From contig QPGO01000232.1 of assembly GCA_008632985.1 (NCBI GenBank), forward strand, positions 62,001 through 105,905: a stretch of DNA of 43,905 bases, in the 5' to 3' direction. The DNA comes from Psammoneis japonica. Taxonomy: Eukaryota. The notes under the pieces were generated by a model. The model saw only the letters and a program-made list of their open reading frames with translations, was not told the origin of the DNA and ran no database searches. Each line of letters begins with the position of its first letter. The first letter of the stretch is position 1. A program made the position numbers and the translations under genes. Shown here piece by piece: positions 1-32,189 of this stretch.

Positions 1-166
1 AAGTGAGGGCGTCAATTTGGGTGGGTGAGAACGTGAACAATTCCTCGCATGATTCAATCCCGTTGATGGACAGGGCAGAACGAAGAGGGCTGTCATTGTC
101 TTGATTGAGCACAGTGCCTAGAATGCATTTGAAGCTTTCGGTTTGTTGCTGTCGCGTGAGAACCAT
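1..166 (-). mobile_element. 5' end of the gag ORF of a decayed Ty1/copia (CoDi-like) LTR retrotransposon; continues off the window
   Basis: The minus strand from ATG at 166 reads MVLTRQQQTESFKCILGTVLNQDNDSPLRSALSINGIESCEELFTFSPTQIDALT, resembling N-termini of diatom CoDi gag proteins (recalled, not searched). Upstream are GACTT-rich repeats at ~220-300 and a TGGTCAG PBS-like motif near 455-470; the LTR probably lies in ~472-1100. Confidence 0.5.
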
Positions 167-1399
167 GACGGAGGACGGTGCAGCAGAAACAAAAGACAAG
201 ATCCAATCTAGAGCGCGATCTTGACTCGGAGTTTTGACTTGGAACTTGGCTTGAAAAAGACTTGACTTGAGCTAGACTTGACTTGAAATCTTGGACTGTC
301 TTAAAATCAGAAGTTGCCGGGTTGTGCCATCCCGTTCGTTGTCAAGTGCCAAACTTCCTGTCCGGTCCGTAGAGTTGTGCCGGCACGTCCGAACCCGTGC
401 AGCTGGTGGCGCTTTGGGTTGCTTACGAGCGGAGCAGCGGGTTGTAAACCCCTGCAGGTGAGCTGACCAGAGGTGGACAAGACCCCCGAACCGTTCTTAT
501 TTTATGTCGGTTGGATTTCCCGATCAGGCTGGCCAGTTGACGCAGGCGTCAGGCACTGTGGACGAACGAACAAACGCGGGAAAAACACCCTCGCCCCAAC
601 GCAGGCTGCAATCACGGCTGCTTGCTCTCACAGTCGTCCTCGTGGACCTGGTGGAACTGCAGAGCACCAGTGGTCCGGGGTGGATCAGGTGCAATGGACT
701 CGGTGTGCTTGTAGAGTGGTGGCAAAACCGCAATCCGAAGAGTGGGTGCAAGTTCTTGGCCGTGAAGACATGCACACATGCATGTCTTCAGCGACGAAGG
801 TCCTTGAACATGTGGGGCTCTTGACTGTTAACCGATGAATGGGCACATCAAGGGATGAGGATCAAGGGTGGACTTGGACATGACCGTTGAATGTGTGTCT
901 TCAGCGATCAAAGGCAGTGTGATCAATCCAGATGTCCAGCGACAAGGAGACTTGACGGTGACGTTAAATTCCTGCCGATGCCTGGTGTTGAACGCGCGTA
1001 GACTTGCCGATGCATGTAGAACACACACGGAGGTCCACGCAGAATTGAGGTGGCGTCGTCGGTAAATCAACGACAACGATGGCGGTTGCTCAATGGGTTG
1101 ACAATGAGCAAGACTGTCAATCTGTCAGAAATTGAAGGCAAATGGCAAGAATTCAAACAATGACTCCTTGCTGCTGTCTAAATGGCAGATGAGTCTCCGC
1201 TCAGAGACCGTTGCAGGAGCCGAAAGACGTGTGAGTCGGCATGATCGGGCTGCTGTTGTTGTTCTTGTGAGCCTTGTGGCTCGAAAGCAAACTGCATCGC
1301 GCGCGAACGTGCGGAACTAAAGCACACAAAACTGTGCGCGGCAAACTGGACAGTGCGCGATGTTTCGCGCGCACCTGAATCCTGTTCAAATCCTGTCAA

Positions 1400-1570
1400 A
1401 TGGCGAGAGGCTGAAGACAATGGTTTTGGATGTTCTGTGTCCTTGTCGTCCGATGGAAGCATCGTTGGAGTTGGTGCACGGGGGGCTGACGTCAATGGCG
1501 ACAAGTCTGGATCCGTGCATGCATTCACGGCAAACAACAACCAGAGGTGCATTTTGCATTTCATCCATTT
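1400..1570 (+). pseudogene. Relic of the last FG-GAP blade and 3' end of the receptor gene family
   Basis: Aligns by eye with 23357-23530 and 38520-38690 (EAEDNGFGCSVSLSSDGSIVGVGARGADVNGDKSGSVHAFT vs EAERDWFGHSVSLSADGSFVGVGARNADVNGDESGSAYAFT), including 3' flanking sequence. Confidence 0.85.
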
Positions 1571-1799
1571 GCATTGCTTGCGTCATTGCAATGTTGCATT
1601 TCAAACGACTGATGGTGTCGCAAGTGCTGCAGCAACAAAATGAAACCGTTGATTTGCAATGAGCAGGTCAGTCAGCTCTCCAGTCCTTTTGGTGGCATGC
1701 TGCAAGACATTTGCTGCATCAGTCCATCACATGAGGAGAGACGCAGCTCGGTGTCTAGAGTTGCATTGGCACCTGCCGCTGGCTAGAAATGCTGCTTGC

Positions 1800-2430
1800 A
1801 GCTGACAAGATTCCTGAGCTTTTGGCATTGCAGGTCGAAGTGACAATTTGTTTGTAGACGTGGCATTCGTTCTAAGAAAACCAATGCTTTTGTCCAAACT
1901 GTTGTCTTGCAGATGCTTTTCAGCCTTGTTCATTTCTGTCTTGGCATGAAACAACCTGCTCAATCAAAAATCCGCGCCCATCCACCCCAACAAAATGGCA
2001 CAAGTCATGGCAATCACGGGTGCCGCGCTGACAATGTTTTGAAAGAACATGGCCAACCCTTGTTGAATGAGAGAGCCGCCACTCTTGCCAATGCAAGAAC
2101 CCAACACATCAATCACAGCCTTGCCCTTGACTTTGGATTCCTCATCAAGTGGAGTGTGCGCCAGCATTTGTGTTGTGGGTTCAAAGCACACACAGAATTT
2201 GCGTTGAAACTTGTGCAGAAACTTTGCAACCAAGGGGAACATTGCCGACAAGAATGACAAGCATGTCAACCAAAAAAGGTTGGCACCAAATGCGCGAGAT
2301 TGCTTGTGATGACAGAACAAAAGCATGCCAATGAAAAACGCAGTTGGAAAGGGCAGGCAAGAGCCATCATCATTGCACCATCTGAAAAAGGCATCGTTGG
2401 TGCAAGAGCTCATGCAGACAAACATGCAGG
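1800..2430 (-). pseudogene. NTT: Hypermutated 3' fragment of a plastid-type nucleotide transporter (TLC/NTT family), with 3' flank
   Basis: FEPTTQMLAHTPLDEESKVKGKAVIDVLGSCIGKSGGSLIQQGL is the NTT C-terminal motif with Y->H. The DNA is colinear with 8460-9000. Confidence 0.85.
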
Positions 2431-4438
2431 AATCTGTGAAACCAAGGCAGAAATGCAACACGATCCTGAAAAAGCTTTGCGGCTTGCAACTGCCTCCGGC
2501 AAAGCTCTGCACATGATTGTGATGGGAAACCTTTGTCATGTGAACATCTGAACAAATTAGGATTTTGCAGCGTGCTGCCATTTCCTTGCGATTCACATGA
2601 CAACCACTTCACATCATCAATTGGTGCTGCTTGTGCAGTCACAAAGTCAAAAGATGTTGTCAAAAACAACCACACACTGTCATGGTGACTTGTGCAAAAA
2701 CCCTCATGTTGTTGCTCCACAAAGAGTTGTGCGCGCAGCCTCAGAACTTGATGTGATGCGAAACATGCCCCTGTTGCAAAGCAGGTTGCAGCTCTAGATT
2801 GTGACAATCTGGAACCAGTTTTTGCTGGAAAAGGGGTTTTGAACAATTGAGCACAGTTGTGTGAGTGCAGAAATGGTTTCTTCAGCACAGATGGGGCTGC
2901 TGTCAGTGTCATGATGAGTGGCTTTAACAGGTCATCATCACACATGATGTCAACATCTTTTTGCACATCCCAGTGCTTGCATGGCGACAAACAAGCCTTG
3001 TCTTCCCATTGTGAAGATGGAGTGCACAGTTCCCTGAGGCACTGGCTTTCTGGCTGCAGCTGTGGTGGTTCTAGATCAAGACAATCCAGAATTGTGGCAT
3101 CCACAGACTGCGACAATCTGGAGTTGAGTGGCTCTAGATTGGGACAAATTGGAGACTGGGAACAAGCAAAAACATCTGGAGACATCATTCTGACATTGCT
3201 GGGAAGTCATTTTTGAAGAAAAGGTTGCAACAAACAGTTTGGTCTGTTGCATGTTCACAATCTGCAATCAGTGAAATGACCAGAAACAGCCCTTTTTGGG
3301 GATGTTCCAGGAACTGCAGCAACATGTGCGTCAAGATAGAAACACAGACAGACGTGCCAGCCACCAGTTGGTTGGTCAGTTGGCTTGTCAAAAGCTCACT
3401 CAAAAAACCACATCACAGCACAGCAGCACCATGATCACAAGAGACTCTCACATGACAGCAAAAATGCAATCTCCAAGAGGCAGAGCAATGGGCTTGCTTC
3501 ATGCTGACATGCTGTGAGATGAGTTTTTCAACGCACAGACACAAACACCACACCGCAGTCTGCACAGATTCTATGACAAAAGAGCCATGCAGAGGAGAGT
3601 GCCAGCCATCTCCAGGGCAATGAGAACCTCACCTCAAGCCATTTTTTCTTTTCCACTCACAGCATTAAAGCTGTCACAGATTCCACAAGGTGGCATGCCA
3701 TGACTGAGCATCACACAAAAAAAGCAAATTGAACGCTCACCCTTTTCTCATTTTTTCACTTTTTGCAGAACAACAACACCCACCAACATGAGCCGCTCCA
3801 ATGACCCACCGCAAAATTCCCCTGCAAGCACAGCAACAATGACAACCATGTGTGACAGACATGGTGGTGCCAGCAATGGCACAACTTGAAGGATGATTGA
3901 GACAAAACAACAAAGCAAGAGGTTGAAAAATGTTGCAAATCTGCCTGTTGCAACAGCGAGGAAGCTGTGTGTGGTGCAGAACAGATGTTGACTCCCAGCT
4001 TTTGTTGCTCATCACTGCCAGCAAGAGCAGCAAGAGGAAGCACTGCAGCCATCTCCTGGAGCCACTCCAGTCCTCAAACTTTTGCTGTTGGTCAAGGAAA
4101 ACAGGAAGTCCAGCAAAAGAACAGGCTGCTGATGAAGGTGTCACTCATTTTGGCACCCAAAGTGGTGTCGCCAATGCTGTGTCCACAGCAACCTGCCACT
4201 GCTGATGACAGCCCTCTTGTGCATGCTGAAGCACATTTGGCCAAACCAAGGGAGGGTGCTGTGGAGCATTTTGATGCACAAATGGCTCAAGTGTGGCAAG
4301 ATGTTGAGTGTCTTCAAATCAACTGGTTCTCTCCACCCAACAAGCAGCAAGCAGAGGTTGCTCGGGGTTGGTTTGGTGCCCCCCAGTGGGGCAGAGCACA
4401 GAGTGCACAGAGTCTGCAGACAATGCAGAGTCAACCAG

Positions 4439-4779
4439 CAGCTCCCAAAAGTCTGCCCGACATAGACGCCCGCAGACTTGTGCTGGTTTTTTGTCAAAAG
4501 TCTGCCCGTTCGGAACGCAGCTTCTACATGATTTTTGCACTGGTGCACCTCATGAACCGTGGGCTTTTCTGCGTGATTTTTTGTGCGGAGTTCGTGCAAC
4601 GGAAATCAAACTGAACATCTCATGAGCCAGTGGCCTTTTTGGGATTTGTTGCATGCACAATGTGCCAGATTCTTGTGTGCAGATGCAAAGGTAGAAAAGA
4701 CAAACAAACACACTGGGAACTTCAGCAAAATTCTGCACAATCGGGCAGACTTTTGTCGCGGGCAGACTTTTGGGAGCTG
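4439..4779. mobile_element. MITE-like element, 341 bp
   Basis: Perfect 21-bp terminal inverted repeats CAGCTCCCAAAAGTCTGCCCG (4439-4459) and CGGGCAGACTTTTGGGAGCTG (4759-4779). Extra subterminal AAAAGTCTGCCCG copies at ~4497 and ~4742 (inverted). Flanked by a CCAG direct repeat (4435-4438, 4780-4783). Confidence 0.8.
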
Positions 4780-4789
4780 CCAGTCAGCA

Positions 4790-5235
4790 GCTGCTCAAAA
4801 CAATGATGGTGTTGAAGACATTTGCAACAAGATTCATTGTTGCAGGTGCTTGCTTGTTTTGGAAGTCACACCGGTGTTGACAGCTGCTCCAACGATGCTT
4901 GTTCCTGTTGCTCCAGCTCCCTCTTGGGTCATTGTGCTTCCAAAGCCCATGGAAACAAGTGGGCAAATCTCACGTGGAAATGATGCAGAAGATCATTTTG
5001 GCTGCTCCGTTTCCTCATCTTGCGGTGGCAGCACCATGGCTGTTGGAGCAAATCAATGGAGCTCTTCCTGCCCTGTGGTTGTGTTGGCACATTCCAAGCA
5101 CCCAGCAGTTGCAGTGGATTTGCTGCACTGCACAAAAACTGTGCACGCAGAAATGGATGTCACAAGATTTGCACTGGCCCAAAACAGTTGTGTGGTGCAT
5201 TGGATCCAACACAGGCCCTGGTGTGTTTTTTGTTT
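4790..5235 (+). pseudogene. Deleted, decayed paralog of the receptor gene (juxta-TM, stalk and FG-GAP pieces)
   Basis: ATTCATTGTTGCAGGT resembles the TM start at ~21411, and LEVTPVLTAAPT resembles SEVSTSTAAPT. GNDAEDHFGCSVSSSCGGSTMAVGANQW matches blade 1; ATGGCTGTTGGAGCAAATCAATGG is identical to 22387-22410. Confidence 0.75.
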
Positions 5236-5769
5236 CCCTCCTCCTGGATCAACCCAGGAGGAGGGAAGTCAATGATGGCAAGCTCCTCCTCCCCTTTGCT
5301 GTTGGCCATCTTGGTGGTCTTGGCTTCTTTTTGCCATCAACCGCTCTTTGGAATTTTGCTCTCCTCAACTTGTTCTCAACCTGCCAAGCCTCCTTGGCTC
5401 CACTGCTTTCTGTTCCTCCAGCCCACATGCGCTGGCCTCTCTCCCTCTCTGCCCCTCTCTGCCCACCTTCCTTCTGCTGATTTCACCTGGAGTTGCCTTT
5501 CCAGGGGCTGCTTTGGCAGCACACATCACTCTGCCTTCCCACCCCAGTGGGCCATTCAGACACTTGGTTGGGCACAACCTGATGCTCCATCCTTTGATGC
5601 TTGCCCTTTGCTTTGCCTCCTCCCTGCATGCCAACTCCTCTCCCACCCCCTCTGCCAACCACCCTGCGCACTGCACCATGAGAGCTTTTCACAGCACTGA
5701 ACACCGCCACAACCCAGCTGCTTCTGGCAGCATCAGATGCTGACCTCAACACATGGCAAGGACAAGAAG

Positions 5770-6045
5770 CAACATCCAAGAAATGGGGTCAATTGGGAAG
5801 TCCACCATCAGTGTTCACAGTTCAGTTGTGGCAGTGGGCGCGCCTGGAAGCAACAACGGAGTTGTTGCATGTGAGCACGAGACAACAAGATGTCCTCTTC
5901 TTGGAGTCACAAAGCCAAGCTGCAGCTTTGGCTGGTCTGTGTCATCAAGCACAAATGACGGCACCTCAATGTGGAAAGCAGCTGGCATGATGTGGGCTGC
6001 AAACTGTGCGGGTCAAGTTGGAGTCTTTCAGAGCAATGCCGACAT
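5770..6045 (+). pseudogene. Decayed FG-GAP propeller fragment (blades ~5-6)
   Basis: VVAVGAPGSNNGVVACEH...SFGWSVSSS...AGQVGVFQSNAD parallels IVAAGAVGSNDRVLVYSY...FGWSVSLS...AGQVQIFQYDVNAD. Confidence 0.65.
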
Positions 6046-7050
6046 CTCCAAACACCTTGTCTGCAGAAAGGAGCCTCTTTGCAGCTGGCGCCCATTGCAG
6101 CAGCAGTTGACCCAGCTCCACACTTGCAACTCGCCCCTTCTTGTGGCATTGCAAGCAAGGGCAACAGCAGCAACAGCACATGGCTGGGACAACAGCGGCT
6201 GAAGTTGAGAGGGTCATCAGCACACTTTGCACTTCAGCGTCGACTTGAAGTCTGTTGTTTGTGTGAAAACAGTTCTGCGGTGCATGGCAGAAGCTTCCAG
6301 GGGAGCAAAGCCACCACAAGCTCTGGCAGCCAGCGGGCACTCTGCATTTTTGTCACGCCCCACATGCCCATTTTCAAGTCACATTGGTGTTGTCAAATGC
6401 ACACACCCCAGCCACGTGCAAACATTGGCCATGGCTTGTGTGGCTTCAAAAGTCTCTCTCCAGTGCAAAAAACCCACAGCTGGGTGAACAAAAAACACTG
6501 CTTTTGATTTGGTGGAGCATGATGGCAGAGGCTGTGGAAGCTGCAAGACAGACAAAAAGGCAAAACAAGCTTGTCTGTTTTGTGCCAAGTTCTCTGCAAT
6601 GTGCTGGGCATGATGTGAGTGACGGGCAAGGGCACAAAGACACAAGGCCTGCTCCACATCTCGCTGCTGACGCAGCAGGTGCCTCAAGGTGCTGTGACTT
6701 TTTTCATCTGAGCAGGGGGCGGCGAAGCTCTTGTGTTCTCACACAGGTGGTGCTCTTTTGTTCATTTGACAAGCTCTCTTGGTCTTGCCCTCTTCAGTCA
6801 AGATCAAACACGGGCCGCTTCAAGACAATCTGCCAGCCAGGATTTGCGACAATGGCGCCTGCTTTCTCTGCTGTCTTTTGTTGGATGTCTTGCCCCGTCA
6901 AAGGCGTGCACTTGAGATGCCCAACTGAGATCTGTTTGTTGTGTGAGCTGAACAGCCACCAGCAAGCTCGTTGGCGGGTGCCACAGCTGCAGCGTGGCTT
7001 TGTGTGTGCTGGCATCCCGGCATCATCTTTGTGGCCCGGGCCCCCCCCCN

Positions 7051-7056
7051 NNNNNN
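7051..7056. other. Assembly gap (N x6) inside a poly-C run
   Basis: nnnnnn flanked by C homopolymers. Confidence 0.98.
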
Positions 7057-7611
7057 CCCCCCCCCCAGCTCTTTTTCTGCAGGCGCCTTGGCAAAGGGCA
7101 CAGACTGCACTTTGTTGGTTGTCCCTGGGGCTTTGACCCAGAGATTGCCGATTGCCATTGTCAACGTGTCGAGGTCGCTCGAGTTAAGTGCAAAAGTGCC
7201 AAGTGGAGGCGGGCACTTTCGCCGCATCACTGCAGGATTCTCGCCCGCATTGCAGATGAATCCGCGTTCATTGCGGTCTTGCTTCAACCACCGTGTCAGA
7301 AGTCAGAATAATAATTCTTCGTGTCAAAGCAGCGTGTCATAATGATAATCCGACTGACACCGGGCTTCTCGTTTCTCACAAAACAGCAACATTGATAAGG
7401 CATTGCTCTAAGTGTTTCTACCATACCAAACACAAAGTGCTCTATTTGGCAAAGGTATGTTTAATTATTGCTGGGGGTTGGGCTATGAAAGTGATGCGTA
7501 AAGCGAGGAAAATTGACGGTCGATACGAACAAGCGCGTGATGAGGGTCGTTCGCTCCTTTGACAGCAACTCGTATCACCCTGCACCTCTTCCTTTCCACA
7601 GAACCAAAAGC

Positions 7612-8292: not shown

Positions 8293-8589
8293 GAGCAGAC
8301 TGCAATTGCTGGCTAGAGTGTGGATCTGAAGGATTTGTTTTTTTCCCTTGTGTGCGAGATGACGACTGCCTGTGATTTAGGGCTTAGTGTGCGTATGATG
8401 ACGAGAATGGATTAGTTGAATTCTTTTATGCTCTATAGTGCACTGCTTGCAGCTAAAAAGGTTCCTGACTTTTTAGCGCTGAAGGTCGGAGTGACAATTT
8501 GATTGTAGATAAGGTATCCGTTATAAGAAAACCAACGCTTTTGTTCCACGCCGTAGTCTTACTGATTCTTTTCAGCTTGTTCCTTTCAG

Positions 8590-9770
8590 TCTTGGCATGA
8601 AACAAACTGCCAATCGATGAGCCGAACCCATCCACCCCAACCAGACGGTACACTAAATCACGGCAACCACGGGAGCCGCATTAATCATGCTTTCCAAACA
8701 TACTACCAACCCATGTTGAATAAGCGAGCCACCGCTCTTGCCAATACGAGATCCAATACATCAATTGCAGCCTTGCCCTTGGCTTTGGATTCCTCATCTA
8801 GTGGAATGTACGCCATTTGTGTCGTGGGATCAAAGAGCGCGTACTTGGACGTTTTGCTTATACCGTAGTAAAGATTGGACCGTTCCAAAGACAACCGTGG
8901 CGGATAGACGTGTATGTGGGGCTACCGTCGAGACCCAACAAGATACAAGCAAAGAACGGTAATGCTAGTACAGCCATGATCCCCGGTGTCGCCATGGCAC
9001 CCACCCTCCATCCCAAGATTCGAATCACGTGCACGCCAAAGGAAATTGACAAATGCACACATGGATACAGCCCCACGGCCAACGAGAAGTTTCCCATGAA
9101 GCGCTAATACTCGGGTGGGTCGGAATATTGTTTCTTGACGAGTGATTTCCAAATGATTTCGGTAAAATTAATCGACAATCCGTATACCCCAACACCAAGG
9201 CTGCCAGAAACAAAAGAGCTTCGACTTGCTCCAGACCGCTACCATTTTCGAGTACAGTGCAATAAAGGCTGTTGCGGTAGGAAAGAGCTCCGTTAGTCTA
9301 TTGAAACAACAAGTACTTTTATTGCGTGAGAGTGCGGTGGTTGAGAACAAACATACCAACATGCCGTGCATGCTGTACACCTCACCTTTTAAAAATGCAA
9401 TAGCTGCGGTTCCACATTGCGATATTGCTGTACACCTCACCTTAAAAAAATGCAATAGCTGCGGCTCCACATTGTGATACTGCAAAAGTGTCCTTGGTGT
9501 CTTGTGTAATTGTCAACGTCCGTGTCGTTGATAGTGGCAATGGAAATGTTGTGCTCGTCAGTGAGGCACCTGGTTACACGCCCGGTACTTGTTTCTCCCG
9601 GTGGTTGTTGGCTCCTTTGTGTATCCCGTATTCGAATCCACAAAAGGTGAAGAAGACGACCGCGGTATCTGCATCGCGCACCATCATAACTCCAGCTATT
9701 ACCTGAAGATATTTAGAAAAAAAGAACATCATGGAGCTCAAATTCAATGAGTGGTAGTTAAGCTTTGTTC
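8590..9770 (-). pseudogene. NTT: NTT (TLC ATP/ADP translocase family) pseudogene with internal deletion
   Basis: Contains TQDTKDT..QCGAAAIAF, PTATAFIALYSKM, YGLSINFTEIIWKSLVKKQYSDPPEY*RFMGNFS (in-frame stop), LGWRVGAMATP and KYALFDPTTQMAYIPLDEESK. Also frameshifts, a ~55-bp tandem duplication at ~9370-9480, and loss of the central TM region between YSKM and LVLGY. Confidence 0.85.
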
Positions 9771-11191: not shown

Positions 11192-12966
11192 CTATCGTGC
11201 AGCAGAGGCGACGGTGTAGGTCCCAGAGCTTGAGTTGGGATTGCCGCAACTCTGCAAATCCACACAAATGGCAGAAAAATTGTCGCCAGATCCGCGTGAC
11301 CTACAATGATACAGATGGGATATACACAATGACAAGAACGTGAGTGTGGTCCCCGGAACAATACACAGTAAATCGTTATCATGCGACAAACGTATGCAAA
11401 ACAGGTGTGGTATCAAAACTTACCTGGCATAATTGCACAGTTTCTTGGCGGTCCACTTGAAGCGATCTGTATCTATAACTAAATCATGGTTATCCTCGTC
11501 TTGTAGTAGTGCCGTGGTGCTTTCAGGACAAGACTCATTAAGGACAATTCTTGCAGCTTCTTCATTGCTAACAGTATCCCAAACTCCGTCACTGGACAAA
11601 ATGAGGAACAAATCGTCGGGTTGCACGTCGTATTCACAAACCTCGGGTTCGGCCGTCACGTAGGGTTTGAGAGCTGCATCGCCAATACCACGAGACACTG
11701 CGAGCAGTCCTTCGACACGCCACTGCTTTTGCCAAAACACAACCTTACCACCCAATTCTTCAATGCGTGTTCGTTCACTATTGGCACCGGGTTTGTGATC
11801 ACGACAGACGCGAACAACCGACCCGTCTTGTTTGACGACAATGGCACGAGAATCACCCGCATTGGCACAAACAATACGCTTCCCTCCGACAATCGACACG
11901 GTACAAGCCGTCGTTCCGTCGGCATTGCCGGTTAAACAAAAATCTTGATCCATGACGGTGTACGTATTCTTCATGGCAAGTCCCAAATCGTGTGGATAGG
12001 TACGTTGATTCTTGAGATAGGACGACATCCAATCGGCACAATACTGACTAGCCTTATCACCACCGTGTCCATCAAAGATACCAAAAAAGGAAATGGGCAT
12101 TTTGACTCGAGTCTTGATGGGTACAACGTGATTGGAAGTATCATCCATGTCGCTGTCTACAGAAACACTGCTGCTGCTCATCAACTCGACTTGTACCGCA
12201 CCCATACTTTCCACGACATATCTGAGTACAAAAAAATAGAGTGAGTAAAGAGAACACATTTCCACATCCGCAGTATTCTACAAAACACTACTACTCACCG
12301 ATCCTCCATATAAGGACGCATACCGACGTGACTCCAATGACTGACATTGAGACGGACACCATTGGGTCGTAACGAACGCTTGGTTCCTTCGGGCGGTTGT
12401 GGCAAAGAGCCATCACCAATGGACGTTCGTAGAGAATATCGAATATCCGATACAATGGATCTTGGTGATTCCAACAAGACTTGTGTATCCATTACGGCAC
12501 TGGAATATAACAAGCTGGAGTCGTCGTCGTTGTCGTCTTTTTTGGATCGTTGTCGTGGCGGAGTATTGAGTGGCGAGGGAGGCTCGGTCCTGGTACTTTT
12601 ATCCGATGGAGATCGTGTTAGAAATCGTGGTGCCAATGAACACGATTTGGTCGGCTTATCGTCGCGATCCTTTTCGTCATGGTCGTCGCTGTAGAGTGTA
12701 TACGATCGATCTTGATTGTTGTTGTTGCTGCTGCTGTTCATTGGTTTGACTGTCGTTCTTGTTGTAGTATCGTTCAAAAAATCCCAACTACTACTACTCG
12801 TCAACAAACTCTTGCGTGAACTCCAGAGCGAATCCCATGAATGCTTTCCGTCGTTATCATTATTGTCATCATCATTATGATCATCCGACAGACGAATCTG
12901 TTCCACTTCGGTGGCTGTGAGCAATCCTACCGATTCGTTTCGTTTGGAACGACGTTGTAGGACCAT
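11192..12966 (-). CDS. PP2C/PPM-family Ser/Thr phosphatase; exons 12966-12299, 12221-11424, 11300-11192
   Basis: Motifs GMRPYMEDR, FFGIFDGHGG, GTTA, ANAGDSRA, DHKP, LAVSRGIGD, LILSSDGVWD and GSGDNFSAICVDL. The GT-AG introns at 12298-12222 and 11423-11301 keep the frame. Long disordered N-terminus. Confidence 0.93.
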
Positions 12967-14268: not shown

Positions 14269-16810
14269 ATGCAGCCACTGTACAAGGTCCAACCCAAGTC
14301 GGAACAACGATCCGTCTTTGAAAATGCCCGCAATCATGTCAAGCCCGGAAGCTTTTTCCAATTTCTAACCTATCTCTACGCGGAACGCAAGTTTATTCTT
14401 GTCATCTTGATTCACTTTGTTTGTACCATGGTTATTTGGGGTGAGTAGAGTATATTGTATGATTGAGTTGTGTGTATGATTTGCTTACTAATCTCAAACA
14501 TACCGCCGCACCTCTATACCGTACTCCATCACATTACGTACGACAGCCACTTCTTTGTGGTCAAGTTTCATCAGCAAGAAAACAAAGTACCCGAGGACGC
14601 CAATCGCTATTGGTGGAAACGTCTTGCCCCGCCGCTCGAGTTTGGAGCCATGCATGCCATTTTGTTTCAAATGGCACTCCTACCCCTCACCATGGCTCGG
14701 CTCTCTATCGCGGCCGCGTCCAAAACCTCTCTCAACACGTACTTTCCATTCAACAAGAGCCAGCGCATTCATATTCATTTGGGATACGTCTTTGGGAGCA
14801 TTGTTGTGATTGCCACTATTTTCTTTTTTGCCTTTTTTGGATTGCTTTGTTCCGATGGCGAACAAGCTTTTGTGACAAGTTTACGTCGGAAATCATGATT
14901 ACGGGGTACATTACCGTGGCCTTTGTCTTGATTATCTTGTCCACGTCATTTTTTCGGGATTACATGCCATACGAAGTCTTTTATGGCATTCATCATTTGG
15001 TATTTGCCATGTACCTTGTGGTCTTGTTGCATACGATTGATATCAACGTGCGAAAGGACGGACAGAATCGGAGTCAAACCTTCAAGTGGTTTTCGGCGAC
15101 GCTCTTGTACTACGTGTCGGACCGCCTTGCCATGCGCTTAATCATCGCTACAAGACGCGTGTCTTGCAAGCCAAAATTGTCAAGAATACAAAGTCGAGCA
15201 TGATTTTGCTACAGCTCAGACGACCCTCCTTGTTTCAATACGAACCGGGTCAGTATGCACATCTGCGGTTTCCCGACATTGATTCGTATTGGCATCCCTT
15301 TTCGATTGGTAGCAGTCCGGATTCCAACGTGTTGGAGTTTTATATTGAAGTCTATGACGACAAATCGTGGACGGGACGACTCTGTCAATTGTTGGGTAAT
15401 GACGTTAGCCACGAGAATGTTCGTGTTCAAGTCATGGGCCCGTACGGAACACGCTTGGGTGATACTCATCGATACTCTCATGCCATGGCTATTGGCAGTG
15501 GTTCTGGTGTCGTTCCTATTTTGGGTCTCTACAAAAAGCACATTTGTCAGCTACTTCGATTGGATCCACAAACATACTTTGAAGAACAAGCACAGATGCA
15601 TTCACAACTGAAGCGTATGGAACGAGCGCGAGAACAAACACGCGGGTCGTGGCTCAACTACTTTTTGCGGTGTTCACCTCAACCGACGCGACACGAAATG
15701 GGTGTTATTTCTGGAATCTTTGATTCGAGCGATGCCGAAACCAAGGACTTGCGAGAGGCGGCCAAGCGTGCGTCTTTAACCATTTATGGCGTCAATATAT
15801 TGATGCAACTGGTTGTCTTGGGAGTTACCATGTTGGGATTGACCTTATCGTGGAATACCATGCCGTTTGAACTCTACGACGGCATGCGAGAAGTGTTGAT
15901 TGTTGGCTCGATTGTGTTTCAAGGCGCCTTTGCCGTTGTGTCGATTGGATACTGGGACCGCGGCTCGTTGCTGGCGTATGTTGATGTCTTGATTGTCATT
16001 GCTGGTGCCGTGGCGAATTGGTATTGGTTTGAATACGACAAGTGGGCTAACTTTGAAGCGGCTGAACATGTGTATTATATCTTGCTGTTTGGATACATGA
16101 CGGCGCGATTGTGGCATTCGGCCGTCAAGCCACGATACTGTTCGTTGCGGAGCAGTTTGGAACGACAACACACGAGTTCAGCATTGGACAAGCTGCACTT
16201 TGTTTGGATTACGCGTTCATCCACCAACGTTTTGAAGATTGCACCCACAATCATGCAAGAATGGAATGCGCTTGTTGCGGCGTGGGGATTGGAGAATGCC
16301 GTCAAGGTGTGTCAGGTTTCTATTTACGTTACCGACAAGGACAAGGCCGCCGTGGACTATCTCAAGCAGGAGTTGTCCAAGATGCCCCTTTACAAGCAAG
16401 GTGCATTCCATTATGAGCGTCCTGACATTTCCAAATTGTTGGAAGAGCATGCCATGGAACGCATTTATGATGAGAGTCGTCCCACCTCGTCTACCCTCTT
16501 GTGCTTTTGCGGATCTCCCAAGCTATCATCAGTGATAAGCAAAGCCAAGACCATTGTGGATATATCAACAATGATTACGGGAAACAAGTACCACCAAATG
16601 GATTTCGTTTCCGAGAGTTACAGTGCCTACACGAAGCGTCCGTCGTCGTCGAACAATAGCAACGCGGTAGTTGTCGCTGCCTCGGCAAAGACGCCACAGT
16701 ACAGTGTCTTTATGGATTCACCCAGCTTTATGGAGAAGCAACATTCGGGAGATGAATTGGATACGACGGATACCTTTGAAGACAATGAGGACCACCTTAT
16801 TTCCATTTGA
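14269..16810 (+). CDS. NOX: NADPH oxidase / ferric reductase-like (NOX/RBOH) copy 1; exon 1 14269-14440, intron 14441-14546; three 1-bp indels (~14547, ~14869, ~15137)
   Basis: Heme-ligating His in TM helices (IHIHLG, GIHHL..LLH), PGQY, WHPFS (FAD), GPYG, GSGSGVVP, LHFVWITR and CFCGSP (NADPH). Four extra TM helices lie inside the NADPH domain, as in red-algal/diatom NOX. Indels inferred from copy 2. Confidence 0.9.
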
Positions 16811-17019
16811 GACTACAGAGGATCGTGGACGGCACGCAACTTTAGAATTGTTTTAGTTTACCTTGCGCATTTATAATTTATAACTACCTCAGCATACATT
16901 GATTGTCTTCAGCCTGTGATTCATAACTACCCCAGCATGCATTGATCGATTTCAGCTTTTGTGTGTTAGTCTTTTCAATTGAGAACTAGATGCATTTACA
17001 ATGCCTCCAGTTCCATTTG

Positions 17020-17950
17020 AGATGTGCATCTGGCTTTTAGAGGCACATGCTGGGAAGCCATTTTGCTTCATTTTTCCTTGAGCAACTTCCACAAGAAGCT
17101 CGAAAATGCCCAACCTGGCCTGATTGCGAAAGTTCTGCGTGCAGCCAAGATGGAAGACTGCAATGGATCTCCAACTCCTGCCCTTCCCATCTCTGTTGGC
17201 AGTGACACAGAAGGCCCACCATTCGATGAACCTTGTGACTGCCGATCTGTGGTTGGCATGTTGATGCATCCAGTGCCCAACAGCCGTCTGGACATCATCT
17301 GCACTACCCATCAATTTGCTTGGTTCTCCTGTGCTCCAAAAGCCTCCCATGCCATTGCTGTCCAATGCATTCTTTGACACTTGAAGGACACGACTGACAA
17401 AGGGCTCATCCCAGCCCCAACCATGGATCAACGACTTGATTGTCATGTTGATGCCAATTTTGTGGGTCTCTTCCATGTTGAGGATGGACAGGTTCCTGCT
17501 TCTGTTAAGTCTCGCACAGGATGTCCAAGCTGCAGCGGCCCCTCATGGTTTTGTCTCTGCTGTTGGAGGCAGAGAATGTTTCTCTCCCAATCAATGCATG
17601 GCCTCATTCCCCTTTGTGAGATCTTGAAGGAAATCAATGCACATGCTTTTGGTCAGCTGGACAGGAAGAATGGCATCACCACACATGCCAAGGCTTTCCA
17701 ACCCACCAACGATGGAACCAATGCACCCCCCATTGCCTCTGCCAGCATCAGCTTGCTCACACGCCAAAACTGTCCCCACAAACCAAGCACACCATCGTGC
17801 CTTGTCACCAGTTTTGTGCTGAAGTTGAGGCTTTGGAGATCAAGATTGAGCCTGTCAGCTCTGCTGCACAGCTTGCTGACCAGTTTGCTGGGGGTTTGAC
17901 TGCTGCTGATCTGTTCTGCACTTGTTGTGGGGCCCTCATGGGCTGGCGAC
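17020..17950 (+). mobile_element. Decayed Ty1/copia RT-RNaseH fragment, copy 1
   Basis: QPGLIAKVL..MEDCN..PTP, DCRSVVGMLMH, LDCHVDANF, SVKSRTG, QLADQF and LMGW are copia pol C-terminal motifs, with Tyr->Cys/His changes, stops and deletions. Confidence 0.9.
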
Positions 17951-19060
17951 TGTTTGTCCTGCTTCTCTTGATTTTGCAGGCAGGCTGTGAGAAAATGAGT
18001 CAATTTGCTGCTGTTCTGTTGCTTTCCCCAAACAACAATGGCAAGTCTGCCACCCGTGGCAGAATGTGCAATCAAGGAATTGCTGCGGCAACATGAAGAA
18101 AACGCAGCAAGCCACCAAGGAAGAAGAGTGTCCGTCAACGGCTGTTTTGGAGGTCCTGCTTCACTTGAGCTGCACCAATGTAAAAGTGATGCAGGCTTCA
18201 CACTTTTTCATCTTGCAGTCTTCTTTGCAAACATCCTTTTGAAATGCCTGGCACCACGTGCAAAGCTTTTGGGTCCATCAGGAATGAACCGCTCTCACAG
18301 CTCTTTTTGTGCTCGATCGACGACAATGGGGTGAACAACCCAAGGTCCAAATTGTCATGGGTCTTTTTGGCAAATGCAAATGACTGTGCACCAGAGTGGA
18401 GTGGCTTTCCATGAGACAACAAACGCCAACGTTGGAAGACAAGGGTGGGTCTTTTTTCAACAATGGCAGACTTGACAACATGCATTGATTGACCGAGGTG
18501 GCAAAACATGCCACGTGTGCACCAACAACAGCATCATCATTTCTGCTCGACAACAACAGGGGATGATTTCGATTGGTGTTGTTGGTTTGGTTGTTGATGT
18601 TGAAGTGAAGTGCGGCATTGGCGGCCTCTCTTTTTGGCACGCACCGGCCGGCTGGCACGCACCGGTGTGACTGCACCTATGTGGGTGACAGACGGACGGA
18701 CCAACCGGATGGCCACATAGTACGCCCGCCTAAAACCAACATGCGTGCAGCGCAACGCTTGAACCGCACGATCGTTCATCGCGGGAATAAGCATGCAAGC
18801 AGTTGGAAGTTGAAGTTATTGGTTATTGTTCTGTTGTTCTTCTGTTGCTTCATTTAATTCGTTCCTGCCCTTGTCTCACGGGCAAGCGTCGCTGTTCTAC
18901 AGCATAATCGATCTCGCCTTGTTGCCATTGTGTTGGTGCCTGTCTCCTTTGCAGTTGCGTTTCTGCTGAGCAGAGGAACCACCTCTTGTCTCGCGTCTCA
19001 CCGATCCGGACTCCGCAATTTTGATTCTGCATCTCGCAGAAAGACACAAAAACAGCAGAC

Positions 19061-22000
19061 ATGCTTGGTGACATCATCGCCGGCATAGAAGCGGCTTTCA
19101 ACTTGTGCGCCGTGATTTACAAGAGCTATGAAACGGTAAAGATCATGCCGGATTTGGCCAAGACCCTCAAGGACCGCGTACAAATATTCAAACCGCGACT
19201 CGAGAAACTCGTTAGGGAATGCCAGGCATCAGGCACATCACAGAAGGTAATTCCGCTTTTGCATATTCAAAGCTTGAACACGGTGTTGGGTGACATTCAA
19301 AAGTACATGAAGAAGCTTCAGGATGACTCTAAACTACGAAAGTTGAAGAATCGGGTGTTTTATCAGAGTCTCCTGGATGAATATGAAGAGCTCAACACCA
19401 AGCTCAATCGTTGTCGGGATGATCTTAAATTTGACTTTGAGTTTGATGTCGATGCCGAGAGAAAAGCGTTTGAGAATGAAACGAAAGGTCTCCTACAGTG
19501 TCTTATTGATCATCAGGGTCAAGAGCACCGTATTCTGCGCGAGATGCTTTCTGAAGTCCTCAGGTTCATCAAGGGTCACAAAGCGCTAAATCTCAATGAA
19601 CAAAACAGTCCTGCTATTGTGACCGCTTCTGCATTTATGGACAATAGTGACTCTGCAACTCTACGAGCTATCATTGATGAGCAGAGTGCCATTGAATATG
19701 AACTCCCGCCATCGGAGGTCGTTTTAGAAGATATCGAGCTTGGAGCAGGCACCTTTGGTGTCGTATACAAGGCAACATACAATAATCAAGATGTTGCCAT
19801 CAAGAAGCCTCATCGTCGAGAATCGGATGTTTGGCGGAACTCATGAACCAAGAAAGATGCAGCGGCTCGCCTTTTGTTGCCCTTATACACGGCTTTGTTT
19901 ATGTCAATGAGATTCGGTCTATTGTTATGGAGTTCATGCCATGTGGTACTCTAGGAGGTCTACTACGCCACGCAATGGGAAGGGATGGGATTGTGTCCAT
20001 CAGCAAGGACCAGCAAAGTCTCGAGGCCACACTAGCTGCGTACACAGTAATTCAGCTCTTTCACAAGGTTAGTGAGGGAATGCGATTCATCAGTCAACGT
20101 AATGTGATACACCGCGACCTCAAGCCGGAGAATATTCTTCTAAGTCAAACTCTTGACCCCAAGATTGGGGATTTTGGGTCTGCTCGAGAGCTCGCAAACA
20201 GCGCGACTCACCTTTCGGGATCCGCTGCTGGATCTGTATACTATATGGCTCCGGAAGTATTGACGGTCCTTAAAGCTGACAAAGGACAATACTCCTATCC
20301 TGCCGACCAGTACAGTTTTGGAATGATCATGGTTAAATGCTGCCATGGTCTGTTTGGTCAGCAGTCTCGTGTGGACCGGCACGACGAGGACGCGCCTCTT
20401 CCAGAGATTCCTCTTCCTGATGCGTTCCCTTCTTCGGTAACAGATATCAAGAACAATTGCATTGCTTCAGACCCATTGATGCGCTATGGTCGTGGCACCG
20501 CTTCAGAATCACTTCTATCAGAAGCGTTCGAGAAGGTACTGCAGCAATTGGATAGCTCTGTCTCTTATCCAAAGATTGATGGGTATTATGGTGACGACGT
20601 TGCAGAGGTGGCAAATATTGCTCGGATCGCTTTTGAGAGTAAGACGCATCGTGGGGTATCTGGCATTATAACTTCGTCCTCATCGCTGATCCCAACACCC
20701 GGCATGGAGAAGAAGCCATTGAAGGACGGAGAGCCGAGCTACTCCACCGCGTCCTTGTCACATTCGTCTACATCCGCGAAAGAACCGGTTCCTCGTGCAA
20801 GGAAGGAGAAGAAAAAGAAGAAACCGACTGCTGATCTCCGAGTTCAAAAAGAGCAAAGTGCATCGTCTCGCAGAAAAAAGCGTCCTGATCTCCGAGTTCA
20901 AAAAGAGCAAAGTGCATCGTCTCGCAGGAAAAAGCGTCCAACTCGTTCCGGCAGCTCGAAAGAAAAAGGACAACCAGCGCAAACTGGATCATCAGCAATT
21001 GCTTCAAGTGGTCACAATGACAGTGCTGAAAGAGAACGGGGCGTTAAGGACGAGACGCAAAATACAAGCGAATATCATAGCCGCACCAGTCGGGAGAGGT
21101 CCGTCAACAGCACAGCCACAGCAAGCCTTGCGCTATCGGCTGCCGCGTATGTCGCGCCAGATGCTTTCACAGTGACGTCTGGAGACCAAGCTGCACAACC
21201 CGAAGAACCGGACAGAGATGACCGCGTCACAGTTACTTCAGATTCCAACAAAGTGATGGAGATGGATCCAGCACAAGTCGTAGAGGCGGTTCCTGCTACT
21301 TCTGATGGTGGTGGTGGCGGACAGAATGAGAAAGCAAATGACACAACGCGAATTAGTGACGAGGATGAGAATGCTGAAGATGAGCTTCATCGCAAGTACC
21401 TTCGCAAACGATTCATTATTCCGGGCGTTGTATTGTTGGCGATTGCAGCGATTGTCAGTATTGTTGTTGCAGTAAAGCCGTGGGACACAGGTGGTGGAGG
21501 GAGCCCCACTTTCCCCCCTACTGTTTCCCCTACTGTTGCACCCGCCACAGAGACTACCGAACGAGCCACCGGTTTGGTCATGAGTTTGATTGGTATTGAT
21601 ACCGAGTTTGATGAAAATGATTCCGAGTTGTGGGCTACGGCAACCAAAGCATTCGTCGAGGATTATTACAACACTCGTCGTCGTCGTCGTGGCCTTGGCT
21701 ATCTCCAGACCCCTCGTATATTACAAGTATCGAATATACAGAATGTCGAGACGTCTTTGGATGTTACTAACACCATTGTGGTTGAAGATGGCAATGGTGG
21801 AGAACCATCCCTTCGAGTCACATACAACCAAGCTATCACGTATACTTTTGAAGACAGCAGCAACGAAAACATTTCCATGGATGCCATGGTGACCGAACCA
21901 TTCAAGACGTCTGATAGTCGATCGGCCTACCAAAAAGACCTCCAGGCGGCGGGCACCAGTGCTGGAAGCAACATTTTTGACAATTTGATTGGCACTAGTG

Positions 22001-23502
22001 AAGTTTCAACCAGCACAGCTGCTCCGACACCGTCACCTACAAATAGCATTCCAATTACGGAACTACCAACACAAGATCCCGCGTCGCCACCGTCGACTCC
22101 GGGTCCAACGACTCTCAATCCAACATCGTTGCCGACGACAAACCCTACTCCTCGTCCAACTCTCAATCCAACACCTCGTCCTACACTCAATCCAACGCCT
22201 CGTCCAACTCTCAATCCAACTCCACGCCCCACTCCATCACCAGCTCCAACAACACCCAATCCCACCAGTGGTGGTGGCAGTTTGCCGCCAAATGGCCCAT
22301 GGGATCCCGTCGGACAAGTCTTGCACGGCAAGGCTGAAGATGATCGTTTTGGCAAATCCGTGTCCTTGTCTCGTGATGGCAGTGTCATGGCTGTTGGAGC
22401 AAATCAATGGGCATCACCTTCCAATCCCGGCTATGTTGTTGTGCAACGATACAATCCAAACACCCAACAATGGGAACAAATTGGCCAAGAATTGATTGGA
22501 CAAGCCGATCATGACGATTTTGGCAATTCTGTTTCGTTAAATGGCGACGGCACAATTCTTGCGGTTGGAGCTGATGCAAATGACAGTGGTGGAACAAATG
22601 CCGGTCACGTTCGTGTGTTTGAATACAACTCGGCATTGGATCGTTGGGTTCAACTCGGCAGTGACATTCTTGGACAAGACGCTGGTGATTTATTTGGTGA
22701 TTCCGTGTCGCTCTCGGACGCGGGAGACATTCTTGCCGTGGGAGCTTACGGTGATGACACGGAAAATGGCGACGAATCTGGATCGGTTCGATTGTTTCGA
22801 TACGACCGCGGCTCCTCATCCTGGAACCAACTCGGACAAACTCTCATTGGTCAAGCTGCCTATGATTATTTTGGAATTTCCGTTTCGTTGAATGCGCAGG
22901 GAAACATTGTTGGTGTTGGAGCGAGTGGAAATGATGCGGGTGGAAACAATGCGGGTCAAGTGTTGGTGTACGAATACAATTCTGCGTCATCAAAATGGGA
23001 TCCGCTGGGTGATCCAATCAATGGCCAAGTCATTGAAGGCATATTTGGACATTCTGTTTCTCTTGACGACAGCGGTTTGATCGTGGCCGCGGGTGCACTT
23101 GGATATAACAACGAGAGGGTTTTGGTTTATTCGTACAGCCGCTCGACTTTGACATGGAAGCAACGTGACCAAACTCTCTTGACACAACAGCCTGGCAACA
23201 CAATTTTGGTTGGTCCGTGTCATTGAGTGGCAATGGAAATGTCTTGGCGGTCGGAAGCATTGGGCATGACGTCAATGGATTGATCAATGCGGGTCAAGTT
23301 CAAATCTTTCAGTATGACGTCAATGCAGACGAATGGAAGCAAGTTGGAGATGCTTTAAATGGCGAGGCTGAACGTGATTGGTTTGGACATTCCGTGTCCT
23401 TGTCGGCCGACGGAAGCTTCGTTGGAGTTGGTGCACGGAATGCTGACGTCAATGGCGACGAGTCCGGATCGGCGTATGCATTCACAGTAAATGAGGAATT
23501 AG
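19061..23502 (+). CDS. Receptor-like kinase copy 1: MLKL/HeLo-like N-terminal helical domain + TKL kinase + TM + Pro/Thr stalk + 7-blade FG-GAP propeller (~1480 aa after correcting 1-bp indels at ~19830, ~23195, ~23495)
   Basis: Joins ORFs 19061-19846, 19831-23226 and 23217-. Kinase motifs GAGTFG, VAIK, HRDLKPEN, DFG, APE and DQYSFG are present. TM FIIPGVVLLAIAAIVSIVVAV follows RKYLRKR. Seven D-x-FG-x-SVSL...AVGA repeats. Copy 2 is open across each indel. Confidence 0.85.
20831..20938 (+). repeat. 54-bp coding tandem repeat (DLRVQKEQSASSRRKKRP x2); also at ~36008-36115
   Basis: Direct repeat visible in DNA and protein. Confidence 0.9.
22108..22235 (+). repeat. 24-bp coding repeats (PTLNPTPR) forming a mucin-like stalk; also at ~37282-37410
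   Basis: Repeated ACTCTCAATCCAAC units in frame. Confidence 0.85.
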
Positions 23503-25315
23503 AAAATGTATTTTGTATTTCATCCTCTTGTGTCAATCACACTGTATTTTTTGTAGTTTAGTTCACTTGGTAGACCGTACATTGCGTCGCATGGCTCGTG
23601 TCATTGTGTGCTGTTTTTCGCGTTTGTTCCAAAAATCAAAAAAGTCTGTCTGTCGTGCGATTCCGCTAGTCTATCACGAACCACACATCACACACACACA
23701 CATCACACATCGGCTCGCGGTCTTGAACAACCATGACGCTACACCAACAGCACTACGAATCAACATGTAACAACAACAACAACGATGTCATAACGTTTGG
23801 AGGATTATCCGCCTCGTGAGTAGAACACATCAACAATGAGAGTTGTTTTGAACAAACTGTGTTGTTGTTGCATGAGTCGAATGCTGCCGCTTGTGAAAAT
23901 CATTGACACGCTGCTGCTGCCACGCACGCTACAATATTGTTGTTGTACATGTCTACGCACTCTCATACTCATCACTCCTTCTCTTTCACACACTCTCTCT
24001 CTCTCTCTCTTGACTACACGTAATGATTCACTTAAGTGTTGTCAAGACACACAAGTCCTTTGAGGGCTTGACTGCAGCCACCGGGGAGCATGCCCACAGA
24101 GTATGGAATCAGCAGCAGAGCCGGAACCAGTCAATCAAAAGTCAAGCAACTGTCTCAGCAAGCACTCATAGGAATGGTGGAGCGAAGGTATTGTACGAGT
24201 ATACTGGATGCAACCAAAGAACGATTTCTGTGATGCGGTTTGTTCGGTCGCTTCTATTCGGATATGCTGCTGGAGAAACGCGTTGCTGCTGCTGCCACTG
24301 CTCCTACAAAGGACAATAGCGAGTCGCTCGTGGCATGCGCAGCGAAATAAGCTCCTTTTGTTGGATGTGCATCCTTGATGAATATGACGTTGGAGAGAAA
24401 CCAATGGTGCTGCCACGCACGCTGTTGTTGTTGTTGTCATGCATGTCTACGTACTCTCTCAAACGAAATTAAAAATGGCCTCCATCCACACTAGTTTGGG
24501 CGTGCGACTCTGTGAATGTTGCTGAGCTCTTTCGAGATGTGGGCTTTGAACAACGCGTCGGTTATTATGCAGTGATGTGTTTTGAATGTACGTGTTTGAT
24601 GTTGTTTCCATGTATTGCTGATTCATAACCATCTGCAGCGACCTGGGTGGTAATGTATGGATTTTTTGGAAAAGAGTTGCAACTCGTATAAAGTGGATTG
24701 GAAACCACGTGTGTCTCGCGGTCGGACAGTTCTCCAGCACAAACCATGGCGGCGCCTGTTGGATATCATACAGTGAACAAGTAGCGGGTGGAACGGGCTT
24801 GTTGGGAACTGCTGTGGTGGGACTAGACGAAAAAGCGCGATGAGGAAATCAACATCCAAACAACCACAACCGAAGGGGGGTGCACGGTGCCGGTACTGCT
24901 ACTACTACTACTACTGCTACTGCTGTACGAACTATATAACAACAATGACACGGATGATTATGACTTTGGAAATGTCGATATCTTTGTTTCGACCATTCCA
25001 TCGACACCCGTCAATATTAACGATGACAACGACAAGAAGGATGACGAAGAGTATTAGTAGTATCAACAATGGCACTAATAACAATGGCGCGGTGGTGGAA
25101 ATATCATTTCATCCTATGGAGACTTGAAAGCACGATTTGCCGATAAACTCAACAAAAAAAAAAGGGACCGCTTGGCTGCTTGTGGGATGTCTTTGTTCCT
25201 CCCTACTACTGCTGCGAATAATAAGGACAAGGACAATGAAAACTACAATGACCTTGGAGATGCCGATAGAGGAAGGGGTTCCTTTGATACCACATGCGTG
25301 GCGGAATATAAAAAT

Positions 25316-31980: not shown

Positions 31981-32189
31981 GACTACAGAGGATCGTGGAC
32001 GGCACGCAACTTTAGAATTGTTTTAGTTTACCTTGCGCATTTATAATTTATAACTACCTCAGCATACATTGATTGTCTTCAGCCTGTGATTCATAACTAC
32101 CCCAGCATGCATTGATCGATTTCAGCTTTTGTGTGTTAGTCTTTTCAATTGAGAACTAGATGCATTTACAATGCCTCCAGTTCCATTTG

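Follow-up and report, generated by a model that had tools for sequence, protein, structure and literature searches.

A mutational process restricted to the dinucleotide TpA has been described in Bigelowiella natans, where it affects integrated giant-virus and virophage DNA and where mutation-accumulation lines showed it arising de novo (Mettrop et al., bioRxiv 10.64898/2026.01.13.699255); flanking context is not mentioned in the available text of that preprint. Here we analyse a 43,905-nt window of the diatom Psammoneis japonica (contig QPGO01000232.1, positions 62,001-105,905), containing eukaryotic genes with long open exons, in which silent tracts have lost nearly all their TpA. We consider it probable that these tracts underwent a TpA-to-TpG/CpA transition hypermutation and that the residual TAs mark the contexts worst suited to a mutator acting on each strand independently, TAGA being the least mutable. 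As far as the preprint text describes it, the Bigelowiella process shares with this one the A:T-to-G:C transitions confined to TpA, which give TpG or CpA according to the strand, the regional confinement with a large contrast in rate to neighbouring DNA, and the long-term depletion of TpA with enrichment of CpA and TpG. The differences are the lineage, here a diatom, the targets, which here comprise a high-copy repeat, relics of genes and otherwise anonymous silent DNA, none of it recognisably viral, and the decay of CpG that accompanies the TpA loss in most tracts. Our literature searches found no description of TpA hypermutation in diatoms or of its flanking context; the erasure of TpA to TpG/CpA is known from that one 2026 preprint, and for a 3' context rule no description was found.

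Three other processes can be set beside these tracts. Repeat-induced point mutation (RIP) of ascomycete fungi changes C to T at CpA, creating TpA while CpA and TpG fall. It resembles the process seen here in that transitions accumulate regionally and at one dinucleotide in silent or repeated DNA, within sharply bounded tracts, and in that the dinucleotide preference provides a diagnostic index; here, in contrast, TpA is destroyed and CpA and TpG are created, and a RIP-type mutation was discarded on account of this opposite direction. Nor do the tracts point to a dependence on duplication, the genic parts of the 15-kb tandem duplication being free of hypermutation. ADAR editing prefers G as the 3' neighbour and U or A as the 5' neighbour, and such a signature is contradicted here, TAG and above all TAGA being the least mutated contexts and AA not being depleted. 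The errors of DNA polymerase eta at WA motifs convert A to G at both TA and AA, and they are contradicted by an AA/TT content that rises in the depleted tracts.

The observed-to-expected ratio (o/e) of TA is 0.43 for the whole window and falls to 0.00-0.07 in 2001-7000, 17001-18000 and 27001-29000, where CA and TG reach 1.4-2.1; the stretch 5001-7000 contains no TA at all. Segmentation was carried out with a three-state hidden Markov model (HMM) on the pyrimidine-purine dinucleotides YR (TA, TG+CA and CG; Y being C or T and R being A or G), in which state 1 denotes the loss of TA with CpG kept and state 2 the loss of both (Table 1). The edges of the tracts are sharp, both in 250-bp bins and in the HMM, and the neighbouring genes retain a TA o/e of 0.6-0.77. 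In the state-2 tracts the TA o/e is 0.04 compared with 0.63 in normal DNA, and that of CA/TG 1.79 compared with 1.24. TA is the only A-containing dinucleotide to collapse, and AA/TT, which increases from 1.10 to 1.27, is not depleted, indicating a process specific to TA. The mass balance of the state-2 tracts against length-scaled normal DNA shows about 360 TA and 307 CG missing and 582 TG/CA in excess, whereas the state-1 tracts have a CpG o/e of 0.86 and a TG/CA gain of about half of the expectation. The losses of TA and CpG are thus uncoupled between the two kinds of tract, and those that keep CpG may be younger, unmethylated or natively TA-poor. The CpG loss of the state-2 tracts is itself context-dependent, CGC/GCG retaining 48% of the expected number and CGA, CGT and CGG 24-35%. 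A low-TA genic stretch at 22067-23473 was also assigned to state 1 but has an ordinary spectrum of flanking bases; it was not counted as depleted and, together with its copy at 37241-38637, was left out of every depleted count. All the evidence comes from this single window, with the ancestral composition assumed.

Table 1. Positions of depleted tracts, gene relics, surviving sites, genes and the tandem duplication in the window.
Feature	Positions	Strand	Remarks
State-1 tract	4-1514		17 TA (17 survivors), 263 TG+CA, 95 CG; overlaps very high-copy repeat (about 1-1400)
State-2 tract, main	1516-7162		15 TA, 1268 TG+CA, 102 CG; anonymous DNA and gene relics
State-2 tract	16999-18611		tandem copy 32169-33780
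State-1 tract	26643-28044		tandem copy 41625-43023
State-2 tract	28053-29210		zero TA; tandem copy 43032-43903
FG-GAP repeat relic, mutated	1396-1586	+	parent 23355-23545 in kinase/FG-GAP gene
TLC ATP/ADP transporter 3' end relic, mutated	1792-2194	-	parent 8443-8843
Unmutated TLC counterpart	8443-8843	-	normal DNA; 78-79% identity to 1792-2194
CTAG sites	119, 209, 273, 1756, 1784, 2795, 3072, 3135, 27536, 28021
TTAA sites	302, 829, 965, 2925, 3666, 7185, 17506
CTAA sites	1179, 1318, 1873, 29215
TTAG sites	2558, 17038
TCTAGA, spared palindrome	207-212, 1754-1759, 2793-2798, 3070-3075, 3133-3138, 28019-28024		last duplicated at 42998-43003
TLC transporter fragments	near 8700-9100		Pfam TLC matches in open reading frames 8706-8921 and 8861-9103
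PP2C	11420-12277
NOX-type ferric reductase	14463-16810 and 29701-31980
Kinase with FG-GAP repeats	19786-23226		intact frame
Tandem duplication, copy 1	14338-28927		15 kb, about 97% identical
Tandem duplication, copy 2	29496-43905

The TAs that survive in the depleted DNA are strongly biased in context. An earlier note, made from the letters of this DNA, had listed 23 residual sites and described the survivors of 100-3700 as mostly YTAR, with GTAG and GTAA in the minority. All 23 sites are present within 1-2 bases, and 17 of the 29 TAs in that interval are indeed YTAR, next to 8 RTAR (5 GTAG, 2 GTAA and 1 ATAG), 4 YTAY and no RTAY. Counting both tandem copies, the hand-drawn depleted set (14,905 bp) contains 49 TAs (YTAR 26, RTAR 15, YTAY 6, RTAY 2) compared with 1188 (162, 225, 373 and 428, respectively) in the other 29,000 bp, taken as normal; with the duplicate counted once these numbers become 42 (23, 12, 6 and 1) and 775 (103, 155, 237 and 280). 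On the latter counts the contrast between YTAR and RTAY gives a Fisher p=7.7e-12, and p=3e-6 against a flat 1:1 ratio. As a composition baseline we used 9 distinct loci of relatives from metagenomes, which are diatom DNA without the mutation (50,473 bp, 2377 TAs); in them YTAR accounts for 17% and RTAY for 27%. The enrichment of YTAR among the survivors is real and far beyond chance.

A strand-additive Poisson model over the 16 classes of flanking bases (NTAN) rejected the absence of any context effect, both for an ancestor like normal DNA (likelihood ratio, LR, 58; p=2e-12) and for a uniform one (LR 31, p=8.5e-7), and itself fits the counts (p=0.11-0.17), with per-strand log survivals relative to TAG of -0.43 for TAA, -1.47 for TAC and -2.60 for TAT. 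The effect is significant in state-1 and in state-2 tracts taken separately, and the uniform NTAN depletion named in the earlier note as the opposite outcome is not what the counts within the window show.

The survivors are further distinguished by the base two positions 3' of the A. For this analysis the 41 unique survivors in 11.3 kb of unique depleted DNA were compared with 16.4 kb of normal DNA (741 TAs). TAGA is found on at least one strand in 24 of the 41 survivors, compared with 74/741 in normal DNA (p=4e-13) and 285/2377 in the relatives (p=3e-12), and TARA is carried by 34 of them. Among plus-strand survivors in the unique tracts 19 of the 21 TAGs are TAGA and 9 of the 13 TAAs are TAAA; with strands pooled, A occupies the second 3' position in 50/82 contexts. 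When sites bearing TAG are divided into those with TAGA and those with only TAGB (B being any base except A), the ratio is 24:3 among survivors and 74:186 in normal DNA (p=9e-10). The survival index, defined as the count in depleted tracts over that in normal DNA, is 0.385 for TAGA and 0.141 for TAAA, decreasing to about 0.06 for TAAB, about 0.04 for TAGB, 0.034 for TAC (15/440 strand-contexts) and 0.011 for TAT (5/467). The palindrome TCTAGA, in which both strands read TAGA, occurs 6 times in the 11.3 kb of depleted DNA, 4 times in the 16.4 kb of normal DNA and 3 times in the 50.5 kb of the relatives. Outside 1-7162 the survivors carry TAGA in 4/9 cases (p=0.008 against 10%). The residual TAs of the state-2 tract at 16999-18611 are TTTTAGAG, CACTACCC, TGTTAAGT and ATGTAAAA. 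The three TCTAGA sites within 2793-3155 share the motif TCTAGAT, three variable bases, GACAA, and a fourth, TA-less copy of it reads ACAGACTGCGACAAT; these three survivors may therefore not be fully independent.

Comparison of models leads to the same ordering. The Akaike information criterion decreases from 100.7 without context to 53.4 for a purine/pyrimidine effect at the first 3' base only, which is the model of the earlier note, 34.8 for TAGA versus the rest, 15.8 for TAGA, TAAA, other TAR and TAY (deviance goodness-of-fit p=0.10) and 12.4 for six categories. In the last model the per-strand log survivals are 0 for TAGA, -0.84 for TAAA, -1.49 for TAAB, -2.09 for TAGB, -2.22 for TAC and -3.41 for TAT. 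The earlier note had proposed TAY as the target, with YTAR escaping on both strands as a consequence. The first part stands as a preference: TAT and TAC survive least, a term separating Y from the other R is still needed after TAGA and TAAA have been included (LR 7.3, p=0.007), and products and simulation, given below, shift as a TAY preference predicts. The escape of YTAR as such does not hold, since TAGC, TAGG and TAGT survive no better (8/207) than TAC and three of the four YTAR sites aligned between the TLC relic and its parent have become TG; the survivors belong mostly to one context, TAGA/TCTA, with TAAA second, which the note had missed.

If each strand were edited according to its own 3' context, R-TA-GA should give R-CA-GA and not R-TG-GA. 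Normal DNA has 68 RCAGA to 94 RTGGA, and the state-2 tracts have 97 to 38 (odds ratio, OR, 3.5; p=2e-7), and the shift is found again when the main tract (OR 3.65) is separated from the tracts at 16999-18611 and 28053-29210 (OR 3.30, p=0.001). RCAAA:RTGAA moves in the same way (OR 2.0, p=0.002), whereas YCAGA:YTGGA remains unshifted, as the other strand there is likewise a poor context. More generally, RCAR+YTGY : RTGR+YCAY is 662:373 in the state-2 tracts compared with 760:633 in normal DNA (p=4e-6), TGC rises relative to CAC (OR 1.33, p=0.001), TGG falls relative to CAG (OR 0.68, p=4e-5), and all four shifts of the TGy:CAy type are in the predicted direction. These tests use ratios and the internal control of a 5' purine against a 5' pyrimidine. 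A forward simulation started from the normal DNA of the window and scored by the root mean square error to the observed dinucleotide profile gave 0.094-0.107 when TAY was preferred, 0.131 when no context was and 0.163 when the preference was reversed; the observed shortage of AT (0.78) and surplus of GC (1.33) were better reproduced under the TAY preference.

Two gene relics inside the depleted DNA can be aligned with unmutated parents and provide before/after pairs. In the FG-GAP pair CA has replaced each of the 5 parental TAs, GTAAA for instance having become GCAAA and TTAGA having become CCAG. In the TLC pair 18 parental TAs with ungapped flanks were scored, of which 12 read TG, CA or CG in the relic and 4 have become other dinucleotides (TT, TC, AA and GG). 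The 2 that were kept, TGTAGA and TATAAG (now TCTAAG), are both ancestral TAs. Directional predictions hold at 4 of the 6 sites of the pairs, GTAAA and TTAGA having been changed via the predicted strand, so that the context rule is in these pairs a preference and not a law.

We infer that the cause of these patterns is the substrate preference of a mutator. Such a mutator would act on each strand independently, would require a T 5' of the A and would read two bases 3' of it, with a mutability decreasing in the order TAT (at least equal to TAC), TAC, TAA and TAG not followed by A (about equal), TAAA and, far below, TAGA. A TA would survive where both strands offer a poor context, which would leave TCTAGA untouched, and a TA that reads TAGA on one strand but TAY on the opposite strand would usually be lost via the latter. 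Its chemistry is a matter of speculation: an adenine deaminase, converting A to hypoxanthine that is read as G, would be the simplest, as the available text of the preprint proposes for Bigelowiella (10.64898/2026.01.13.699255). The data fix the base pair and the context changed, not which base is attacked, and a description on the T strand (T to C at R-T-A, refractory at TC-T-A) fits them equally well. No deaminase was found among the genes of the window.

The earlier note had also pointed to a resemblance with bacterial TadA. Wild-type TadA reads the bases 3' of the A, with UACG as its context (PMC12296453, PMC8052359), and the evolved TadA-8e is described in the available text as acting on 'UA' without a clear downstream preference (PMC12296453). 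The tracts share with TadA and ADAT2-3 an edited A that follows U or T, and a footprint from -1 to +2 that matches in shape. The rest of the resemblance fails: the preferred 3' base is here T at least as much as C, a G at +2 is not favoured (3/94 TACG against 12/346 other TAC survive, both small numbers), and the most conspicuous trait is the avoidance of TAGA, to which we know of no TadA counterpart. The match is therefore weak.

Several observations weigh against the interpretation proposed above. The sample is small: a single window supplied 41 independent survivors, and its strongly mutated DNA amounts to about 8.4 kb. The TAGA rule is post hoc, having been found on the sites that it describes, with tract splitting and product counts as its only replication. 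The excesses of products are larger than the supply of TA and CG in normal DNA, e.g. about 381 CAG+TGG against about 248, which means that the ancestral DNA was compositionally different, probably richer in TA than normal DNA. The state-1 tracts show no product asymmetry, RCAGA:RTGGA being 7:10 and 2:8, counts of little power, and RCAR+YTGY : RTGR+YCAY 142:116 (p=0.89). As the signal of the products appears only where CpG has decayed too, a context-biased decay of CpG may contribute to it; the contrast between 5' purine and 5' pyrimidine argues against a pure composition effect, with this caveat remaining. Two of the six directional predictions in the relic pairs fail (GCTAAA to GCTGAC and AATAAG to AATGAG). 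The differences between the tandem copies are mixed, 15 of 16 TA/TG differences being TAY but 6 of 14 TA/CA differences being RTA, all unpolarised. The only difference that could be polarised, at 25613 by means of a 455-bp repeat, is a gain of TA from TG, and two older differences between the 455-bp units lie in non-TAY contexts.

As an alternative, the TAGA/TCTAGA sites might have been shielded, by strand-specific adenine methylation or by a bound factor, from a mutator largely indifferent to the 3' bases. TCTAGA, which is spared completely, is a six-base palindrome such as DNA methyltransferases recognise, and its density per kb is 0.53 in depleted DNA compared with 0.24 in normal DNA and 0.06 in the relatives; the strand-additive model nevertheless fits without any palindrome term. 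R-TA-GA is still lost via the other strand, RCAGA increasing from 68 in normal DNA (about 35 when length-scaled) to 97, and a shield would consequently have to cover one adenine only. It would also leave the residual order TAT > TAC > TAR unexplained, and we regard shielding as unlikely.

The residual TAs could instead be mostly new, arising by C-to-T or G-to-A changes at CA/TG, for example from CAGA to TAGA. The fact that TCTAGA is commoner than in normal DNA, the polarised TG-to-TA gain mentioned above and two copy-private TAs in TAGA contexts (26742 and 42137) speak for such a bias. Yet both survivors that can be aligned with a parent are ancestral, and the source pools are about equal (423 YTGR+YCAR and 426 RTGY+RCAY), so that unbiased creation would give YTAR and RTAY at about 1:1, whereas the state-2 tracts have 11:0. 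Creation cannot yield the asymmetry of RCAGA over RTGGA, and new TAs that last only in TAGA would still require TAGA to be refractory. Taken together these points make a creation bias improbable. That the tracts were from the start rich in TAGA/CTAG and poor in TAY, or are so by chance, with an erasure blind to context, is hardly credible: the mass balance does show an ancestor unlike today's genic DNA and three CTAG survivors (2795, 3072 and 3135) share a 20-bp motif, but 59% of the ancestral TAs would have to lie in TAGA (normal DNA 10%, relatives 12%), the flanks of the survivors are otherwise diverse, and the effect persists against a uniform ancestor as well as against the tracts' own TG products (TAGA:TGGA 17:101 and TAGC:TGGC 1:148 in the state-2 tracts).

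The depleted tracts are silent DNA of various kinds. When 15 read-through frames over 276-7049 were translated, with TGA read as X, they matched Pfam only at the TLC and FG-GAP relics and showed no domain of a transposon. Positions 1-1400 are a repeat present in very many copies, the summed contig depth of run X1 being 70,000-199,000 there and about 25-60 in 2669-7337; position 818 is T in all 28 covering contigs of that run and C in the window. The contigs come from one sample, which may be the source of the assembly. A 20-base word of this repeat had 0 matches in the metagenome scan, and none of the 11 metagenome loci around PP2C relatives, 4 of which span 11-21 kb, contains a depleted tract; their use was confined to the composition baseline. 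The main tract contains an assembly gap of 7 N at 7050-7056, about 100 bases short of its right end. A 337-aa open frame without Pfam match is located on the minus strand at 26634-27647, in a nearly TA-free tract that keeps CpG.

The nearest named relatives of the PP2C are diatoms, with identities of 57% for Cylindrotheca, 59% for a name beginning 'Asteri' and 51% for Attheya, followed by Triparma and oomycetes. An intron of the PP2C gene is revealed at 12221-12299 by a contig of run X2 that skips 77 bases with ends CT..AC (GT..AG when read on the minus strand). The spliced joint suggests that run X2, listed as 'DNA?', is RNA; no contig of this run covers 2002-7337 or 17343-18676, an absence to which no weight is given.

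The tandem duplication carries the NOX gene, the kinase/FG-GAP gene and three depleted tracts, and the kinase frame is broken in copy 2 (35599-37551 and 37163-38665). The depleted tracts predate the duplication, whose genic parts are not hypermutated, and only 30 of the 318 substitutions between the copies exchange TA with TG or CA; its use as a before/after pair was rejected on these grounds. In the normal-looking stretch 23817-26640 the copies differ at 9 TA/TG sites, all of them TAY, while the 115 conserved TAs comprise 57 TAY and 58 TAR; of the TA/CA differences the one at 24370 fits the TAY preference and that at 24999 does not. When the TA/CA and the older differences are included and 25613 is dropped, 9/12 fit, which is not significant against the 54% at risk and lends weak support. 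On the plus strand TG exceeds CA in 23475-26639 (287 against 232) and in its copy 38639-41621 (267 against 203), and between these two stretches TA/TG differences outnumber TA/CA differences 9 to 2, which points to a light episode with a strand bias in DNA that is otherwise normal. The 455-bp unit occurs twice in tandem at 25316-26224 (and at 40299-41208), with 94-96% identity, and its copy B1 has four transitions clustered within 12 bases.

So far TpA-specific hypermutation of silent DNA has been described once, in the 2026 preprint on an alga unrelated to this one, and no enzyme is known for it. Seen alone, the enrichment of YTAR would tempt one to infer TAY as a simple target and an enzyme like TadA; this inference is corrected here, as the data show nearly all contexts erased and one spared. 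The refractory tetranucleotide is a requirement that any candidate enzyme has to satisfy when assayed on oligonucleotides, and the 3' context rule enables a comparison between lineages that distinguishes one enzyme from convergence; it also constitutes a better index to find and reverse such mutation, as the CpA/TpA indices do for RIP. We tentatively suggest, as a possibility that we hold with some reserve, that diatoms carry an A:T-to-G:C DNA mutator aimed at silent DNA, with a four-base footprint of T at -1, a preferred pyrimidine at +1 and TAGA spared. If this is true, the footprint would allow the 'de-mutation' of transposon relics, the dating of tracts and a direct biochemical matching of candidate deaminase-fold enzymes, and its recurrence in the mutation-accumulation data of Bigelowiella would establish that a single ancient genome-defence enzyme of eukaryotes is shared across supergroups.

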